The position numbers and the translations under genes are program-made. Positions 18,204 through 28,935 of a stretch of DNA of 44,184 nucleotides are shown in pieces (positions within the stretch are counted from its first letter, which is position 1; every line of letters starts with the position of its first letter). The DNA comes from a virus (Duplodnaviria; Caudoviricetes), in the IMG/VR virus record IMGVR_UViG_3300023314_000003, positions 1 to 44,184 of that record; one strand, given 5' to 3'. The notes beneath the pieces are model-generated. The model did not search any database, had not been told where the DNA came from, and saw only the letters and a program-made list of their open reading frames with translations.

Positions 18204-18289
18204 TGATTGAGGCAGGACTCGAACCTGCACGGTAACTTAATCCTTTCAGCCTTTCAGCCGCCTGCGTCTACCAATTCCGCCACTCAATC
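18204..18289 (-). tRNA. tRNA-like element with Leu-type body and non-canonical anticodon arm
   Basis: Acceptor stem GATTGAG/CTCAATC plus discriminator A; D arm TGGCGGAATTGGTAGACGC; T arm GCAGG-TTCGAGT-CCTGC; the anticodon stem does not pair in register; no encoded CCA. Confidence 0.8.
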
Positions 18290-21296: not shown

Positions 21297-22253
21297 ATGC
21301 GTAAACTCTTAATATTACTCCTATTCCCCCTTGCTGCTTTAGGGCAAGCACCGACAAACGCAACCACGCAAATTAGCGGATCATCGGCGTTCACCCCTAA
21401 CGGTTGGCGGTATAAGGATAGCACACAGGTACAGATGTACAATACTACGTTAGGCAAGTATTATCAATTGGTTACAGGAAAGCAGTTTAATGACTATATT
21501 GGTACGGCAACACAGGCTGCTATAACAGCAGGCGGCACCGTAAATGGATGGACAGTAAGCAGTGTGCCATCAGTGGGGCAGGTTGTAACAACAGGGACGC
21601 CACAGGAAGTTTTTTATCAGCTTTTTAAACAAACCCAAGTTCCTACAGCATCATTAACAGGCGGTACTACCTTAAGGCTTTCAACAACAAACTACAGCGG
21701 TACGCTTAATTATAGCTACGGTAGGCAAATAGCTACTGAGCCAATAGCAAGTGCTGTAATAACGCCCGGTTCGCTCAATGTTTATTCAACACAGCCCGCA
21801 CAGCCGGGTACTGTTTCAGGCACACAAGCGGTAAGCGTACCCGCTAATACTAATACAACTTATACGCTCACTGTAACTACTTCTGATAGCAAAACAGCAA
21901 CAGCGACCTCAACTTACACTTGGTTACCCGATAGGTTTTGGGGTAGGTCTGCAAGCCAAACACCGAATAATTCTATTGTAACAGCTTTTGCGGGCGGTGG
22001 CAATGATTTGGTTGGAACTAAAGACAAATCAGGGTTCACAATAACAGCAAGCGGCAGCAACTATGTTTATTATGCCTATCCAGCAAGCAAAGGGGATTTG
22101 ACTTTCATATCGGTAGGTGGATTTAGCTCTTTCGGAGCATTTACAAAGTCGGTCGTGTCTATAACGAATATAAACGGGGTAGTGGATAATTACAATGTAT
22201 ACACCTCTAATAATACATTTTCATCAACCACACCTTCAATAATTGTATACTAA
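21297..22253 (+). CDS. Signal-peptide-bearing fibre/adhesin-like protein
   Basis: MRKLLILLLFPLAALG|Q; Thr/Ser/Gly-rich beta protein; TYTLTVT and YVYYAYPAS.G motifs. Confidence 0.7.
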   Translation: MRKLLILLLFPLAALGQAPTNATTQISGSSAFTPNGWRYKDSTQVQMYNTTLGKYYQLVTGKQFNDYIGTATQAAITAGGTVNGWTVSSVPSVGQVVTTGTPQEVFYQLFKQTQVPTASLTGGTTLRLSTTNYSGTLNYSYGRQIATEPIASAVITPGSLNVYSTQPAQPGTVSGTQAVSVPANTNTTYTLTVTTSDSKTATATSTYTWLPDRFWGRSASQTPNNSIVTAFAGGGNDLVGTKDKSGFTITASGSNYVYYAYPASKGDLTFISVGGFSSFGAFTKSVVSITNINGVVDNYNVYTSNNTFSSTTPSIIVY

Positions 22254-25200
22254 TGAAAAAACTACTCACGATATTATCACTATTCATAAGTACAGCAGCG
22301 TTGGCGCAGGTGCCCTTAGCTGGCTATGTAACCACTATTGGCCCAAGCGACACTTATCCCGTTACTTTAGATTCATTACAGGCAGGCGGCTATACCACAA
22401 CCTACAATTATACAACCCGAAATGCAATACCAGCTGAAAGGCGTAAAATATCCATGGAGGTTCGGTATAGCAGCAATAAGGATTCAACATTTGTTTTAAG
22501 CGGGGGTATAACGAATAATGACTGGGTTTATACAGGTATCGGTAATTCTATTCAAAATCAAAATATATTTGCTCAATCAGCTAATGCATGGATAACAGGA
22601 TCGTATAAAGGCGCAGCAGGGATATTTACAGACGGAGCAGGCAACACTACAACGGCCTCTGCTGGTTCTATTAGCGTATCTACAACAACGGGCGGAGGTT
22701 CTATATCACCTACATCTATCGGTTTTGGTAATTCATCAGGAGGGTTTAGTCTTAATAATTCGGGCTTAACTTTTGGGGTAGGTTCTTATGCCAATAAATT
22801 TAGCATAATTAACCCGTCAACATCCGAAGTTTTTAGCACAAACGACCTTAAGCTAACTGGAACACATGTTTATACAAATGTTGTACCGACCAATTCAAAT
22901 GATTTAGTAAGGTTAACCGACTTGCAAACACTAGGTATCCAAAACCAGTACACGGCACCACAATCGGGTGCGGGGCTTTGGACAGCAGGCAATATCAGGG
23001 CAAGTGGAAACATTCGCGCAGATGGAGATTTTGCAGTGCAGGGATTGTTGTACAGGGTAGGTGGCCCGTGGAGTATACAGGCAGACGGTTCAACTGTTTT
23101 AAACACGCTAACGACAACCTCAACAATTAAAATAGGTAACACTTCATCGGGTGAGGTAGCTTTAAGGTTGCAGTCTAAGCCTAACGGTGGGGCTTATGAT
23201 TGGCAGTTCATGGCTAATTCTATGTCGGGGGATACTACGCTTTCATGGAAGTACAGGGGCACTGATATTGTTGTAGCAAAACCAAACGGCAATATCTATA
23301 ACGGTGGCGGGTATAGGTATTTGACTGCTTTAGATAGCACCTATTCGGAAAACACGTTTGTGCATAAAGCAGGCGACAACATGACAGGCCAGTTAAACCT
23401 GCCTACTATCAAAGTGGGCACCCATTCATTAAATCCCGGGACAGGAAGTGGTGCATTTAATGATATAGGGTTAATAACTGAGGCTGCGGGCAGATCGACC
23501 CAAATATTTTACCTTGATAGCAGTGGCGTAGCAAAGCCAAGATGGGCGTGGTCGAGAGAGACATCAACAAATGGTTACGATTTGAGGCTTTTAAGATATG
23601 ACAGGTCGGGATTAAGCACAAACTTTGATATTCCGTTAGAATACTCATATACAACTGGCAGCGCAAAATTTAAGGCTCCAGTATTTAATACGAATACAAA
23701 TTTAGGGGTAGCAGGAACAGACAGCTTAATAGCTAAAAAATCAACAGGTGAGATAGTAAGATTAGCGCCTTTAACGTCTGTTCTCGGTGGATACGTGCCG
23801 TACACAGGCGCATCGGGAGCGGTTAACCTAAATGGGCAAAACCTTACTAACGTTGGTAATTTTGCACTTTCTGGCTCAGCAACAATTGGTGCAGGGTACA
23901 CCGGTGCGCAAGCAAACAGACATACCATTACAGACGATAATGCATCGGCTACTATAAGTCCTTTAGGCATACAAAGTAAGGCAGCTACGGCTACGGCTTC
24001 TATAGATTACTATAGCAACACAGGCGTTCTCCAATCCGCTATAGGTTATGCTAATGCCTCTGCTCCGGCTGTTATCGCTGGTACAAATTACTTTTTTAGT
24101 TCTTCAGCACCGTGGCAGTTCAATTTAAATAATACAGAGAAAGTAAGAATAAATACCACTGGGATCATAGTTACCCAAAATAATTTAATTACTACAAGTG
24201 CTGCAGGGTTATTAATTACGAACCCAACAGCGGCCACGGCAGTTAGTGCTTTACAATACTCGCCGCAAATCAAACTATCAGGCACAGCGTGGAATACAAC
24301 AAGTAGTGGCTCGTCTGATACACACGAATCGGCTTTTGAACTAAGAACGGCATCAGGCACTACAACCAATGCAAGCCTTAACTTAGGGTTTAGGGTGAAT
24401 GCAGGCGCATATACTTATCCGTTTAACGTATCTAATATTGGCATAATCACATTAGGAACTGCGGGGCGCTTGCTTGTAGGAACAGTACCCAGTGCGGGTA
24501 AGGTGGTAATTGGAACCGATGCCTTTAGTACGTCTGCTGCTTATGGAACAATGGGTATGGGATTTCAGTCAAATGCTGCGACTTATACGAGTACAGCAGC
24601 GGCGGGCAGTCCTGCATCTGTTGGTGTAAATACTTTTGGCATCCCGACTTTAACAGCTACCAATGCGCAGGCGATAACAAACGCTTCGACATTCAGGATA
24701 GCAGGGCCGCCAGTAGCAAGCACAAATGTTACTATTGCAAACCCTTTTGCTCTTGACGTAGCGAGCGGAAATACGCTGCTTTCAGGTTCTATAATGAACA
24801 CCAATACAGCGGCGGGAACAGCGGGAACAGATAGCTTATTGGTAAAAGTAGATGCAAGCAACGAGATAAGGAGGATATCCCCAACGTTTTACGGAGCTAT
24901 AAACGCAGCAAACACATGGACAGGCAATCTTAACAGATTTACGTTTGGAATAGCACTTAACAGCGGTGCAAAAGTAAATTGGGATACGAGTGGCGGCACA
25001 AATACAACTCTTGGTGCAGATCCGTTGGTAGCTACCAATGTGGCTGTTATAATGCCTAAAGAAAGCGGCACATTAGAGTTAGGAACAAAGCTACGCCTCA
25101 CAGGCAGCGGGACAGGAGCAGCTACAACCATCAGTATAGCGCACGGATTAACTGGCGTTACATCGAGTAGCATAGCTATGGTACAGCCTATTAACGCTGC

Positions 25201-25315
25201 ATCGGCAGGAATAAGCTATGTGACAACCGATTCGGCAAATATTAACATCGTATACACTGTCGCCCCTGCGAACGGCACTAATAATTTATCTTACAACGTA
25301 TCTATCAAACCATAA
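22253..25315 (+). CDS. Signal-peptide-bearing tail-fibre-like protein (1020 aa)
   Basis: MKKLLTILSLFISTAALA|Q; fibre motifs RNAIPAERR, FVHKAGDNMTGQL and YVPYTGASGAVNL; internal repeats. Confidence 0.75.
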   Translation: MKKLLTILSLFISTAALAQVPLAGYVTTIGPSDTYPVTLDSLQAGGYTTTYNYTTRNAIPAERRKISMEVRYSSNKDSTFVLSGGITNNDWVYTGIGNSIQNQNIFAQSANAWITGSYKGAAGIFTDGAGNTTTASAGSISVSTTTGGGSISPTSIGFGNSSGGFSLNNSGLTFGVGSYANKFSIINPSTSEVFSTNDLKLTGTHVYTNVVPTNSNDLVRLTDLQTLGIQNQYTAPQSGAGLWTAGNIRASGNIRADGDFAVQGLLYRVGGPWSIQADGSTVLNTLTTTSTIKIGNTSSGEVALRLQSKPNGGAYDWQFMANSMSGDTTLSWKYRGTDIVVAKPNGNIYNGGGYRYLTALDSTYSENTFVHKAGDNMTGQLNLPTIKVGTHSLNPGTGSGAFNDIGLITEAAGRSTQIFYLDSSGVAKPRWAWSRETSTNGYDLRLLRYDRSGLSTNFDIPLEYSYTTGSAKFKAPVFNTNTNLGVAGTDSLIAKKSTGEIVRLAPLTSVLGGYVPYTGASGAVNLNGQNLTNVGNFALSGSATIGAGYTGAQANRHTITDDNASATISPLGIQSKAATATASIDYYSNTGVLQSAIGYANASAPAVIAGTNYFFSSSAPWQFNLNNTEKVRINTTGIIVTQNNLITTSAAGLLITNPTAATAVSALQYSPQIKLSGTAWNTTSSGSSDTHESAFELRTASGTTTNASLNLGFRVNAGAYTYPFNVSNIGIITLGTAGRLLVGTVPSAGKVVIGTDAFSTSAAYGTMGMGFQSNAATYTSTAAAGSPASVGVNTFGIPTLTATNAQAITNASTFRIAGPPVASTNVTIANPFALDVASGNTLLSGSIMNTNTAAGTAGTDSLLVKVDASNEIRRISPTFYGAINAANTWTGNLNRFTFGIALNSGAKVNWDTSGGTNTTLGADPLVATNVAVIMPKESGTLELGTKLRLTGSGTGAATTISIAHGLTGVTSSSIAMVQPINAASAGISYVTTDSANINIVYTVAPANGTNNLSYNVSIKP

Positions 25316-25833
25316 TGAAAAAGTTAATATTAATCTTACTCCTGTGGGCGGGAGTTTCGAAAGCCCAAACTATACCCGCTGCGCAACTATCTTTTAGTAC
25401 GCTTTCAGATTTAAGATCGCAAGGTTCAACCCCAAATTCAATAGCGTTGTTAAATGGATTAAGCACCATAGGCGATGGCAACGGCGGAACATATATGTGG
25501 AACGCTACAAGCACAGCCACAGACGATGGATTTATTACCGTTAAAGTAAACAATATTACCACAGGGCGTTGGATAAGGCTTGTTAACAGCAATACCATTA
25601 AAGGCACTAAAATATTATCCGGTGCTGTACTGCAAACCGCATATACCATCCCATTTGATAACACTTTGCCAGCCATTCCAGCAATGGTTATTATACAAGC
25701 GTACTCATCAAACGCAGCTGTTCCTAGTTGGGTGAGTAACGTTACTACTACAGGGTTTACAGCTAACTTTGCTAGCGTCCCTGTGTTAGGTACAAATAAT
25801 ATTGAAATTCGTTATTTAATAATTAAACAATAA
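25315..25833 (+). CDS. Signal-peptide-bearing protein with tailspike N-terminal-like domain
   Basis: MKKLILILLLWAGVSKA|Q; TLSDLR...GDGNGGTYMW.ATSTATDDG...GRWIR motif. Confidence 0.75.
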   Translation: MKKLILILLLWAGVSKAQTIPAAQLSFSTLSDLRSQGSTPNSIALLNGLSTIGDGNGGTYMWNATSTATDDGFITVKVNNITTGRWIRLVNSNTIKGTKILSGAVLQTAYTIPFDNTLPAIPAMVIIQAYSSNAAVPSWVSNVTTTGFTANFASVPVLGTNNIEIRYLIIKQ

Positions 25834-25849
25834 TTTAAAACAACAGATC

Positions 25850-26014
25850 ATGCCAGACAAAGTATCATGCTCGCAACCAAAACCAACAGATCACCCTACT
25901 CCTTATGGGGAATACATATGCGTAGGTGGTTATTGGCAATGGCAAGAATCCTACGGTCGCCGAACCGACAAACAAAAGGACAAGAATAAAAAAGATGATA
26001 AGAACGACGACTAG
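25850..26014 (+). CDS. 54-aa Cys/Pro/Trp peptide with charged tail (not in ORF track)
   Basis: MPDKVSCSQPKPTDHPTPYGEYICVGGYWQWQESYGRRTDKQKDKNKKDDKNDD; A-rich start region; overlaps the next ATG. Confidence 0.6.
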   Translation: MPDKVSCSQPKPTDHPTPYGEYICVGGYWQWQESYGRRTDKQKDKNKKDDKNDD

Positions 26015-26357
26015 AGCAGCATTGGTAATGTTTTTACTTTCGTTTTTATTTATTTACTTTTATGGAATGTCAACAGGATGTTTCGGAAGTGAAACCAAAG
26101 CAAAAAGTTTTTACCAGATAGGGATGGCTGTTTTTACAGCCTCTCTATTTGTGCCTTCAAGAAAATATTACGAAAAACAATTTACATATGTCGGTTTAAG
26201 TGCTATGTTAGCATTCTTTGTTGTTGGTGTTTTTAAAAATTCAGGTTTATTGGCTTTGTCTACCTATCCCCTTATGATACGCTTTGCTGGCCTGTTTTTT
26301 GTAACAACTTCTATAATATTATATTATGGGAGGAAATATGGCTTATTTAACGAATAA
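25995..26357 (+). CDS. Multi-pass membrane protein (about 4 TM, 120 aa)
   Basis: Start re-assigned to MIRTTTR; four hydrophobic stretches. Confidence 0.7.
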   Translation: MIRTTTRAALVMFLLSFLFIYFYGMSTGCFGSETKAKSFYQIGMAVFTASLFVPSRKYYEKQFTYVGLSAMLAFFVVGVFKNSGLLALSTYPLMIRFAGLFFVTTSIILYYGRKYGLFNE

Positions 26358-26358
26358 A

Positions 26359-26619
26359 ATGCAAGGGGAAGAATCAAACGCCTTTAATACTTTCGTCTCG
26401 TGGTTAGATGAAAACTGGAAATATGTAGCAGGCTTTGGTTTGGCCTCACAGTTAGTTGACCAATTTTTCAAATGGTTAACTAAAAGATCAGAAGCCCGTA
26501 TTAAAGAGATTTACAAAGAGCAATATGACAACACTGTAAAGCCAGAAATATCTAAATTAACTCAAAGCATAGATGGATTAAAAGAAAGTATTTGGGAGCT
26601 GAAAAATCAAATTAAATGA
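26359..26619 (+). CDS. Membrane-associated coiled-coil protein (holin/antiholin-like)
   Basis: Amphipathic/hydrophobic N-terminal half and coiled-coil C-terminal half; the start may be 26338. Confidence 0.55.
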   Translation: MQGEESNAFNTFVSWLDENWKYVAGFGLASQLVDQFFKWLTKRSEARIKEIYKEQYDNTVKPEISKLTQSIDGLKESIWELKNQIK

Positions 26620-27029
26620 ACGGCATAAAAATAATAGTAAACGTGCTCGATGACGAAGAAGCTATATTAATTGGAGTTGAAGATATTTTATCTGATAATA
26701 CTGATTTGAAAATTGAATGCTTTAACAAGGTTGATACATTTTTTGAAAAAATAGATACTAATACTGACCTTGTAATAACCGACGTTAGATTAAATCAGGG
26801 CTATGACATTGAGGTTATAATTGAGCGCATAAACGTTAAAAACCCTAATTGTTACATTATTGTTATATCGGCTTACATGGATTTAAAATTAGCTGAACAT
26901 TTATCTATGTTAGGTATAAGGTGGGTTCAGAAAGATAATGTCGATTGGCTGGATAAACTTAAAAAAGTTGTAGATATTATTTACCCGTCGTTAAAGATAC
27001 GTGCCAAGAGTAAACACCTATTTAAATGA
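26616..27029 (+). CDS. Stand-alone response-regulator receiver (CheY-like) domain
   Basis: Conserved D12/D13 (LDDEE), phospho-acceptor D56 (VITDVRL), S85 (IVISAY) and K106; no output domain. Confidence 0.88.
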   Translation: MNGIKIIVNVLDDEEAILIGVEDILSDNTDLKIECFNKVDTFFEKIDTNTDLVITDVRLNQGYDIEVIIERINVKNPNCYIIVISAYMDLKLAEHLSMLGIRWVQKDNVDWLDKLKKVVDIIYPSLKIRAKSKHLFK

Positions 27030-27187
27030 AGCTGCAAGAATGGTTACCCGCTATTACCGTAGTTATATCTGCCGCTATATGGGTTATTAATCTTATGATT
27101 ACCAACCGATCATTAAAGGACAAGGTAGAGAGGTTAGAGCGCGATAATAGCGAATTGCACGAGTATGCTAAGAATAGTAAGCCGTAA
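27026..27187 (+). CDS. 53-aa single-TM plus coiled-coil protein (not in ORF track)
   Basis: MKLQEWLPAITVVISAAIWVINLMITNRSLKDKVERLERDNSELHEYAKNSKP; ATGA-coupled to the receiver gene. Confidence 0.7.
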   Translation: MKLQEWLPAITVVISAAIWVINLMITNRSLKDKVERLERDNSELHEYAKNSKP

Positions 27188-27203
27188 TTAATATGGTTTT
27201 TTA

Positions 27204-27227
27204 TTTGCAATTACTTTATTACCTTTG
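27204..27227 (+). promoter_or_regulatory. Promoter-like element ahead of the endolysin unit
   Basis: TACCTTTG at 27220-27227, 4 nt before ATG 27232; upstream TTTG at 27204 is closer than usual. Confidence 0.5.
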
Positions 27228-27231
27228 AGTT

Positions 27232-27321
27232 ATGAATTTTGACCCGGTAAAGACGCTCGTGTTTTGGTTTATAATTGTAATGTTTATTGGGTTTGCATTT
27301 ATAAGAGCCTGTAACGGATGA
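27232..27321 (+). CDS. 29-aa TM micropeptide
   Basis: MNFDPVKTLVFWFIIVMFIGFAFIRACNG; ATGA-coupled to the next ORF. Confidence 0.5.
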   Translation: MNFDPVKTLVFWFIIVMFIGFAFIRACNG

Positions 27322-27404
27322 GAACTAAACACCCCTACGCTTTGCCTGTGATAATTGGAGGGGTTCTTACCATTGTGGTAATTAATGTAACATTTGGATT
27401 ATGA
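27318..27404 (+). CDS. 28-aa TM micropeptide
   Basis: MRTKHPYALPVIIGGVLTIVVINVTFGL; ATGA-coupled to the endolysin. Confidence 0.5.
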   Translation: MRTKHPYALPVIIGGVLTIVVINVTFGL

Positions 27405-27973
27405 ATAAAAAACTTACCGATGCACAGATATTCCAGCTTGCTTGCGAGTTCGGATATGAATACCGGATGCTAAAGGCTATTATAAAGGTCGAGAGCGGCG
27501 GTGTAGGTTTTTCTGATACAACAGGTAAGATAATAATTCAGTTTGAGCCACACTGGTTTAAACGCCATAAAAAGGATTGGGCAAACGCTACTAAGCACCT
27601 TACATGGCAATCAAATAAAGTAGGCAATCAAACAGAGGAATGGAAAGCGTTTAATGATGCGTTTGCGGTAGATGCTAATGCCGCGATGAAAAGTACGTCA
27701 ATTGGCTTAATGCAGCTTATGGGGTTTCATTACATCATGGCCGGTTTTAAGACTGTTGGCGAAATGTGGGACGCGGCTAAAGAAAGCGAATATAACCAAG
27801 TACGAATGACGCTGGTTTGGATTGGTAAAAATCCTTCGCTTGTAAATGCTATTAAGAAACGAGACTTCCGCAAAATTGCTTATTACTATAACGGATCTGA
27901 ATACGAAAAGTATAATTATCATAACCGTTTATCTACGGCTTACAGTACATCAAAAGAATACGTACCTAATTAA
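27401..27973 (+). CDS. Endolysin, N-acetylmuramidase family (DUF3380-like)
   Basis: AIIKVESGG.GF, I.FEPHWF, STSIGLMQLMGF and YYNG..Y motifs. Confidence 0.92.
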   Translation: MNKKLTDAQIFQLACEFGYEYRMLKAIIKVESGGVGFSDTTGKIIIQFEPHWFKRHKKDWANATKHLTWQSNKVGNQTEEWKAFNDAFAVDANAAMKSTSIGLMQLMGFHYIMAGFKTVGEMWDAAKESEYNQVRMTLVWIGKNPSLVNAIKKRDFRKIAYYYNGSEYEKYNYHNRLSTAYSTSKEYVPN

Positions 27974-28035
27974 ATTATTATGACAGACTTAATCGTGAAA
28001 GATACGACACGAAACGTTTATAAATACTTATTACC

Positions 28036-28314
28036 ATGAAATCACTATCGGACAATATTAAGCCCTTATTAGCACTTATCTTAGTCGTGGGGTGTCTATC
28101 ATACCTTTTTATGATAACGTTCATTTATAGAGGGGATAGCAACGTTCTATCGCAAGCATTGATTGCTATTGTAACAGCGTTAAGTACTGCCACTGGATAT
28201 TACTTTGGATATTCGCAGGGGGCGGCTAAAAAAGACGAAGTTATTGCATCGCAAACCGTCGCCGCAACTCCTACGGCTACTACAGAAAGCGGTGACATTA
28301 CAGTTCAAAAATAA
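28036..28314 (+). CDS. Holin-like 2-TM protein
   Basis: Two TM helices followed by GYYFG.S.G..KKD; follows the endolysin. Confidence 0.75.
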   Translation: MKSLSDNIKPLLALILVVGCLSYLFMITFIYRGDSNVLSQALIAIVTALSTATGYYFGYSQGAAKKDEVIASQTVAATPTATTESGDITVQK

Positions 28315-28548: not shown

Positions 28549-28935
28549 CTAGTCCATTACAAGGTTTTCATAAGCCGCTAAAACAATTAAGATTACTTCT
28601 TTCCATTTAGGTGGTAAAACCCCCGCTAATGCTTTAGCTACATAGTAAATTCCCTGCGCTATGCTTTGCCAAAGCGTATTCCAATCAATGGGGCTGGCGG
28701 CTTTTTTAGCGTATGATTGTATGTAGCCAATCACATCGTTTATATCTGTGTATGCTATGCCGAGACTGTTTGCCATTGAGCGCAGATATTCGATGGTTAA
28801 ATCAATATCGTTTGCTAATTCAGGTATTTTATCCAGTATGTTTTTTATTACATCTTGTGCGGAAGCATCAAGGTTTGTTTTAATCACCTGCGTGATCTTA
28901 ACAGCTATATCCGCTAATACTTTGTCGTCTTTCAT
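28549..28935 (-). CDS. Hypothetical helical protein with amphipathic C-terminus
   Basis: 128 aa, ATGA-coupled to the micropeptide chain. Confidence 0.6.
   Translation of the reverse strand: MKDDKVLADIAVKITQVIKTNLDASAQDVIKNILDKIPELANDIDLTIEYLRSMANSLGIAYTDINDVIGYIQSYAKKAASPIDWNTLWQSIAQGIYYVAKALAGVLPPKWKEVILIVLAAYENLVMD

Follow-up and report, generated by a model that had tools for sequence, protein, structure and literature searches.

Why does a phage that has no histidine kinase of its own carry an intact stand-alone receiver of the two-component type a short distance ahead of its endolysin? We have addressed this question in a Caudoviricetes genome of 44,184 nucleotides (nt), IMG/VR record IMGVR_UViG_3300023314_000003, analyzed over its whole length (the window, hereafter). 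It is a closed 44-kb phage genome with a 127-nt terminal repeat, classed as 100% complete, in which genes for portal, prohead protease, capsid, tape-measure and terminase are present. The receiver gene is the fourth in a block of five, called here a, b, c, receiver and e (Table 1), that a preliminary description had put forward as a candidate signal-controlled lysis system inside the lysis cassette. Our analysis partly supports that interpretation. The feature exists, is conserved and evolves under selection, and the sequences compared suggest that host phospho-signals may tune lysis through the receiver; the five genes do not look like one unit, and receiver and e look like an optional two-gene add-on.

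The receiver and its family

All five genes described between the upstream open reading frames (ORFs) and the endolysin are present and tightly coupled, with junctions of -20 (a/b), +1 (b/c), -4 (c/receiver) and -4 nt (receiver/e). The product of the fourth passes the Pfam Response_reg cut-off (33.8 bits vs. 30.2) and has the key residues ascribed to it, D12, D13, D56, S85 and K106. Its AlphaFold2 model is a (beta/alpha)5 fold of five strands and five helices (predicted local distance difference test score, pLDDT, 93.7) with a long alpha5 at residues 111–135, and the top Foldseek matches were the receivers of LuxO, FixJ and DctD. By sequence and modelled fold it is a genuine response regulator of the single-domain type. 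No output domain is attached to its 137 amino acids (aa), only 27–35 residues following the conserved Lys (K) in the family, and a stand-alone receiver of this kind must act by contact or phosphotransfer.

An exhaustive phmmer search with the receiver gave 75 matches. The alignment held the query and 23 of them, later 29 sequences including those derived from the loci described below, with distant, multi-domain or fragment matches excluded. The members are 24–45% identical to the query. DD1, the first of the acidic pair, is Asp or Glu, and DD2, D (D56 of the window), S and K are invariant in 29/29 sequences of a family that was gathered by similarity to a query already holding the catalytic residues; catalytic positions make up four of its seven invariant columns. 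The residue following the Ser (T+1) is small, Ala or Gly, in 29/29 (A86 in the window). A Pro after the Lys (K+1), which belongs to the CheY-type switch, is found in 0/29, the window included, and the Y-T coupling aromatic at K-3 in 2/29; the window has W103, beside a one-residue deletion. A Trp a few residues past the Lys (W111 in the window) is invariant. For comparison, PMC12632262 defines true receivers by five residues (DD, D, T/S, K) and gives, for receivers generally, 74% Ala/Gly at T+1 and 86% aromatic residues at K-3. Because the five catalytic residues are kept and the K-3 aromatic and K+1 Pro are mostly or wholly gone, the receiver, judged from these positions, retains its chemistry and not the usual CheY-type output switch.

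Selection could be followed in two relatives, L194 and L196, whose receiver genes differ by 39 synonymous and four non-synonymous changes (ratio of non-synonymous to synonymous rates, dN/dS, 0.017) and whose c genes differ by 19 synonymous and no non-synonymous changes; in more distant pairs dN/dS was saturated or 0.16. The receiver is under purifying selection in these relatives. Among the fetched loci, the profile of the family gave 136–174 bits to its members, which were in the training set, and 58 to the next receiver. In a quick tree with hand-chosen groups, 17 stand-alone receivers of greater distance, a fragment of 102 aa and the rest of 139–162 aa, group with the family with a Shimodaira–Hasegawa-like approximate likelihood ratio (SH-aLRT) support of 95. 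The 139–162-aa proteins with long C-terminal helices include P0024, P0029, P0030, P0032, P0034, P0039, P0042, P0045, P0047, P0048, P0061, P0063, P0066, P0067, P0072 and P0074, some of them on contigs of 47–74 kb.

As first described, no kinase was found in this complete genome, HATPase_c and HisKA giving 0 matches in the window in searches whose controls matched in 14 and 13 of 14 genomes. HATPase_c was not found either in eight related records, four of these at least 90% complete, L194 and L196 not among them. HPt and HisKA_3 gave nothing in Pfam scans of most window ORFs, no separate search having been aimed at them. No cognate kinase or phosphotransfer protein that would make a complete two-component system was found beside the receiver. 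Carriage of part of a two-component pathway, the host supplying the rest, has a parallel in the C. difficile phage phiCDHM1, for which the abstract of PMC3901668 lists AgrD, AgrB and the kinase AgrC and no response regulator; the window phage has the opposite half, a receiver without kinase or AgrB in a late envelope region.

Like CheY, Spo0F, MrrA and LovR (Caulobacter; PMC5964349), the phage receiver is a stand-alone (beta/alpha)5 protein with five catalytic residues and no output domain. Unlike them it is kinase-less, combines the K+1 and K-3 counts given above with a Trp that never varies and an extended alpha5, and is encoded by a gene translationally coupled to one for a membrane-anchored coiled coil. 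The fold is shared with LuxO, FixJ, DctD and NtrC1 (template-modelling scores of 0.72–0.81 for the top six Foldseek matches) at 16–21% identity, and the extended alpha5 with DctD and NtrC1, where it has a linker role; the AAA+ or DNA-binding domains are missing from the phage protein.

Distribution of the block and of the receiver-e pair

We gathered relatives by scanning viral contigs with alignments of the receiver and of b, which gave nine other receiver-bearing contigs (L002–L008, L194 and L196; the last two about 91% identical over the block). The order c-receiver-e is found in 10/10 phage genomes, counting the window, and a-b stand ahead of it in 9/9 loci where the region is visible (L006 begins within the block); in L005 b is shorter and its homology is not clear. 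Receiver and e overlap in 10/10 loci, c and receiver in 9/10, and in every locus showing that region the block is preceded by genes with signal-peptide-like ends. The receiver is not a sporadic neighbour of lysis genes: the neighbourhood is common to all ten loci.

Three comparison loci have no receiver. L103, a complete phage of 43.8 kb, has a and b and then two other membrane genes. In L197, genes a, b and c are joined by another c-type gene, after which comes an M15 endolysin. In L090 (Mucilaginibacter) a c-type gene, 45% identical to c of L006, stands alone directly ahead of a muramidase and a holin-like gene. In 3/3, neither receiver nor e is present. In this small sample (ten loci with receiver, three without), e is the sole block neighbour never met apart from the receiver, and a-b-c are independent of both; a profile of e run over 229 Mucilaginibacter-genus genomes gave one chance match. 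It is because the receiver-less relatives retain a-b-c, a-b or a c-type gene, and none of them e, that the pair looks optional and that the proposal of five genes forming one obligate system does not stand.

The receiver family was met here in phages only, a distribution that is partly built into the collection searched. In cell genomes it was not found, which is not to say absent, in 0/401, 0/229 and 0/301 genomes of overlapping sets, with 10–18 candidates scored in each and without a cellular positive control. A metagenome scan (26 of 64 parts) gave two members among the best 80 of 365 confirmed loci, one duplicating L004 and the other matching the window; the next best scored 58 bits vs. 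at least 136 for members. There were no matches in a single-protein viral scan, a genome-contig scan or a viral scan with the distant receiver subgroup, and in cultured phages the family was not found, tblastn with three queries giving just generic host-type regulators. The host of the window phage is likely a member of the Bacteroidota, given that the best named relatives of its endolysin are from Mucilaginibacter and Niastella (59–65%) and that a prophage-like region in a Mucilaginibacter-genus genome carries homologues of a, b and c.

Products of the block and flanking genes

Table 1. Coordinates of the five-gene block and of flanking features in the window.
Feature	Position	Strand	Remarks
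Three Ser/Thr/Gly-rich ORFs (318, 1020, 172 aa)	21297..25833	+	Possible fibre/spike or exported proteins
Gene a, 54-aa peptide	25850..26014	+	C7 and C24; no signal peptide; net charge 0
Gene b, 120-aa membrane protein	25995..26357	+	3–4 helices; start ATG 25995 likely; homologous to b of relatives
Gene c, 86 aa	26359..26619	+	Weak N-terminal hydrophobic helix, predicted cytoplasmic coiled coil; no His
Receiver, 137 aa	26616..27029	+	Stand-alone single-domain response regulator; D12, D13, D56, S85, K106
Gene e, 53 aa	27026..27187	+	N-terminal transmembrane segment (about 7–25), predicted cytoplasmic coiled coil; leave-one-out profile, charge bias
TAnnTTTG motif	27220..27227	+	Weak; 41 such sites on same strand, may be chance
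29-aa single-transmembrane ORF	27232..27321	+	Previously unlisted; maximum hydropathy 2.44; 4-nt overlap with next ORF
28-aa single-transmembrane ORF	27318..27404	+	Previously unlisted; stop overlaps endolysin start by 4 nt; holin/antiholin-position candidate
Endolysin, N-acetylmuramidase	27401..27973	+	PF11860, 142 bits
92-aa two-helix membrane protein	28036..28314	+	Likely holin by position; phrog_9990 (function unknown)

Leave-one-out profiles, built from the relatives, were run against 218 ORFs, and their top matches were window b (E 9e-07), c (E 3.3e-08) and e (E 9.9e-06). Gene a was missed; it is the positional counterpart of hypervariable peptides to which homology is undetectable. The 54-aa peptide with two Cys and the 53-aa protein e with a transmembrane (TM) segment and coiled coil are as first described. 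For b, the membrane nature held, and the count of about four TM segments needs qualifying, the hydropathy scan giving three in the window and four in 5/9 relatives. Gene c fits its description as a membrane/coiled-coil protein, with a hydrophobic segment that is weak in the window (maximum 0.75 vs. 1.3–2.2 in relatives). Gene b has no Pfam or PHROG matches and no known family, its Atlas neighbours carrying no names, and neither the a nor the b family matches Pfam.

The tail of e is predicted to lie in the cytoplasm, on the same side as the receiver, because of a charge bias around the TM segment (0–1 Lys/Arg ahead, 2–5 behind) in 9/9 sequences. Neither c nor e has a conserved His. Co-folding of the receiver with c (36–86) or e (20–53) scored 0.00 in both runs, in which the controls likewise did not fold, and weighs on neither side. 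The PHROG matches of e are weak and mixed: phrog_1350, a holin, for the window (E 0.004), and holin, Rz-like or unknown families across loci. One relative's e and one c match holin PHROGs at E about 0.001–0.002, the others none. With such matches, and with other genes in holin positions, the flanking proteins can be called no more than candidate holins. A paralogy of c and e was considered and rejected (merely 20 columns, probability 53%).

Several of the a peptides carry a Cys hairpin, C-x2-G-Y-x2-D-P-x4-C-V, that is a widespread small module of unrelated phage proteins (L105–L187), often of 380–530 aa and encoded, by eye, directly ahead of a terminase-like gene. As a specific signal motif it was discarded, a-type peptides accounting for just 3/83 loci with the pattern and most of the others being large unrelated proteins.

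The block lies upstream of the lysis unit and not inside it as had been proposed: the endolysin has mini-TM ORFs chained to its start and a holin-like gene behind it. The 29-aa and 28-aa ORFs occupy the 213-nt gap between e and the endolysin, and the 92-aa protein is 39% identical over 59 aa to the product of the gene behind the GH25 endolysin of L194. In 5/10 loci (window, L002, L007, L196 and the receiver-less L198) a short single-TM ORF runs into the endolysin start or ends right at it; in 3/10 it is farther away and in 2/10 none was found, numbers to be set against the short TM ORFs that AT-rich DNA may yield by chance. These ORFs are candidates for minimal holins or antiholins. Chains of them, of 25–44 aa and beneath usual gene-calling limits, are seen ahead of the endolysin, in many cases overlapping its start, at L002 8020–8195, L007 7009–7086, L194 10331–10686, L196 9119–9452 and L198 9175–9303. 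The TAnnTTTG motif, which we take to be the Bacteroidota -7 promoter element, lies within 500 nt of the endolysin in 6/10 loci, near background, and a sigma70 promoter/terminator scan stayed at chance level. In the window ORFs scanned, neither Pfam nor PHROGs identified a spanin.

Across the receiver loci the endolysin is found 213–4316 nt downstream of e in 9/10, and five endolysin types follow the constant block: muramidase, GH108, GH25 (five times), M15 peptidase and phrog_181. Inserts between e and endolysin (L006 1139–3193, L194 7099–8931, L196 6567–8402 and L005 8605–10122) code for large exported-type proteins of about 500–680 aa, the first three alike and repeat-rich. A helical ORF of 128–170 aa recurs as a neighbour of the holin-like gene, in most cases in opposite orientation and with weak mutual similarity (window 28549–28935 (-), L003 8720–9172, L007 9450–9953, L196 11275–11763 (-), L093 6805–7194 (+) and L002 4774–5316); in L002 a similar helical region is fused to the Cys tail of gene a. 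Homology of the window reverse-strand 128-aa ORF to the helical proteins of the relatives was not shown (E 0.11). L090 5667–6812 and L093 5998–7194 are Mucilaginibacter chromosomal clusters of muramidase and holin-like genes near phage-like genes, possibly prophage remnants.

On the other side, gene a starts 16 nt past the last of three ORFs that had been called fibre genes. The name is unproven: of the three, the 172-aa ORF alone has a clear match, to a tail spike (phrog_38440, E 8.7e-07). All three begin, judged by eye, with a signal-peptide-like segment with Gln at its end, and large fibre-like proteins with such ends and cleavage before Gln were also seen by eye in L002–L005, L007, L008, L194, L196 and L198. 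These ends suggest export through the inner membrane, which would be unusual among tail fibres. The upstream proteins showed no significant enrichment of an O-glycosylation motif (best p 0.052). A reverse-strand gene cluster containing a tRNA match (Rfam, 39.2 bits, 18204–18289 (-)) separates the tail genes from the 21297–28314 operon; this tRNA, outside the five-gene block, was alone in the Rfam scan of the window.

Possible roles of the receiver and gene e

Our preferred reading, which we put forward tentatively, is that the add-on consists of a host-charged receiver acting on e, and that e is an accessory lysis factor of the Lcc6 kind. The receiver would be phosphorylated, as its five invariant catalytic residues and small T+1 lead us to infer, by a donor from the host, given that none was found in the phage: a histidine kinase, or else a small phosphodonor (acetyl-phosphate, for example). 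Once phosphorylated it would contact the predicted cytoplasmic coiled coil of e, its putative partner in view of co-occurrence, translational coupling and a shared cytoplasmic side. The signal probably leaves the receiver through alpha5 and not through the CheY-type alpha4-beta5-alpha5 switch, since the K-3 aromatic and K+1 Pro are lost while W111 and the long alpha5 are kept. The output would be lysis, as suggested by position and by the likeness of e to Lcc6 in size and topology, and the contact might tune when lysis begins. Lcc6 of the Shewanella phage LambdaSo has 65 aa, a TM segment at 5–22 and a cytoplasmic tail, and is needed for lysis at the holin level, according to bioRxiv 2024.01.23.576932. 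By size and topology alone, e shares this plan (about 50–77 aa, N-terminal TM, predicted cytoplasmic tail). Lcc6 is far from its own lysis genes, essential and described with no receiver beside it, whereas e is absent from some relatives. That the phosphorylation state of the host is wired into the lysis clock of these phages of Sphingobacteriaceae-like hosts, receiver-e binding holding or releasing the triggering of the holin, is a more specific and rather doubtful extension.

Several observations weigh against a role in lysis. In siphoviruses the lysis genes follow the tail genes by default, and some proximity to them is therefore to be expected. The interval between e and endolysin usually spans unrelated or reverse-strand genes and the block is tightly joined to the exported-type genes upstream. 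In L008 a two-helix gene lies 45 nt past e, and the 5.8 kb retrieved downstream of e contain no endolysin. The lysis unit has membrane genes of its own, the mini-TM ORFs and the two-helix gene that follows. Receiver and e are dispensable for lysis in L103, because this complete relative has neither. The PHROG matches of e are weak and mixed, and the receiver-less sample amounts to three loci. The link to lysis first proposed has position as its sole basis: an endolysin lies downstream in 9/10 loci, separated from the block by inserted genes that span as much as 4.3 kb.

The main rival is that the receiver acts as a phosphate sink or decoy, expressed late to drain phosphoryl groups from host envelope-stress or defence two-component kinases, with e at most a membrane tether and any effect on lysis indirect. 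We regard this as unlikely, although it needs only an intact active site and small T+1, makes fewer assumptions about output, and agrees with the place of the block behind signal-peptide-like genes in every locus showing them. It also agrees with the lost Y-T output switch (K-3 aromatic in 2/29 vs. 86% generally, PMC12632262) and with MrrA and LovR, single-domain receivers that act as promiscuous hubs and sinks (PMC5964349). A free sink, however, would need neither the fixed overlap with e (10/10) nor an invariant W111 with a 27–35-residue tail after K. The block might also serve the exported proteins encoded upstream, in their export or anchoring or in a late addition of fibres, or act in superinfection exclusion, with receiver and e as modulators and the lysis genes simply next on the late transcript. 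This would explain the 16 nt between a and the last exported-type gene, the variable, insert-filled gaps before the endolysin, and the promoter-like motif and separate mini-membrane ORFs ahead of it. We judge it distinctly improbable: the c-type gene of L090 stands directly ahead of the endolysin without a or b, the promoter motif is at chance frequency and the O-glycosylation motif is not significantly enriched upstream. Slightly less probable again is a phosphorylation-independent adaptor or tolerated passenger, the receiver fold being a scaffold or unused. The missing phage kinase, the non-canonical K+1 and K-3 and the absence from some relatives would fit; the catalytic columns are the most conserved, dN/dS is 0.017 and the position is fixed in ten genomes, which does not.

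Two further schemes give a part to gene a. In a kinase-less, quorum-like peptide sensing, a would be the signal, b its receptor and c the relay to a receiver controlling lysis, in keeping with a being always ahead of b (9/9 visible receiver loci plus L103 and L197) and with the strongly variable a tails, several with a Cys hairpin. We find it very unlikely, for both a-b and a-b-c are kept in loci that lack the receiver, a is without a signal peptide, and neither an invariant His or Cys in b nor a conserved His in c (0 in the window) was seen. There is no AgrB-like processing gene or AgrC kinase as in agr-type systems, and no lysis-lysogeny switch is evident, a tyrosine integrase not being found in five near-complete genomes (the window and four related records). 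The least probable of all is that c and e are unrecognised spanin-like subunits and a a disruptin-like peptide, with the receiver as bystander or gate. A spanin was indeed not recognised in the genome, one e matches an Rz-like PHROG (E 8.2e-05) and three weakly match DivIC. The coiled coil of an i-spanin lies outside the cytoplasm (N-in/C-out), though, the opposite of what the charge bias predicts for e (C-in, 9/9), and the block contains no o-spanin-type lipoprotein or lipobox ORF, so the Rz/Rz1 pattern of two-component spanins is not seen. The a peptides are neutral or acidic in 10/10, not cationic, which rules out a cationic outer-membrane peptide.

The holin is commonly regarded as what sets the time of lysis, with few external inputs known. 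If a host-charged receiver does act on e, the timing of lysis would have an input from metabolism or stress for which the literature searched offers no description; in the full texts covered, few of them subscription papers, neither receivers in phage lysis regions nor signal-peptide fibres are described. Receiver and e are the two-gene unit to which the question narrows, for which the receiver-less loci, one of them prophage-like in a Mucilaginibacter-genus genome, provide natural comparisons, and the 28–29-aa membrane genes matter to any reconstitution of lysis. A conserved, catalytically intact and kinase-less receiver under strong purifying selection in the late envelope region would mean that, late in infection, these phages either sense the phospho-signalling of the host or interfere with it, and both outcomes would be new phage biology.

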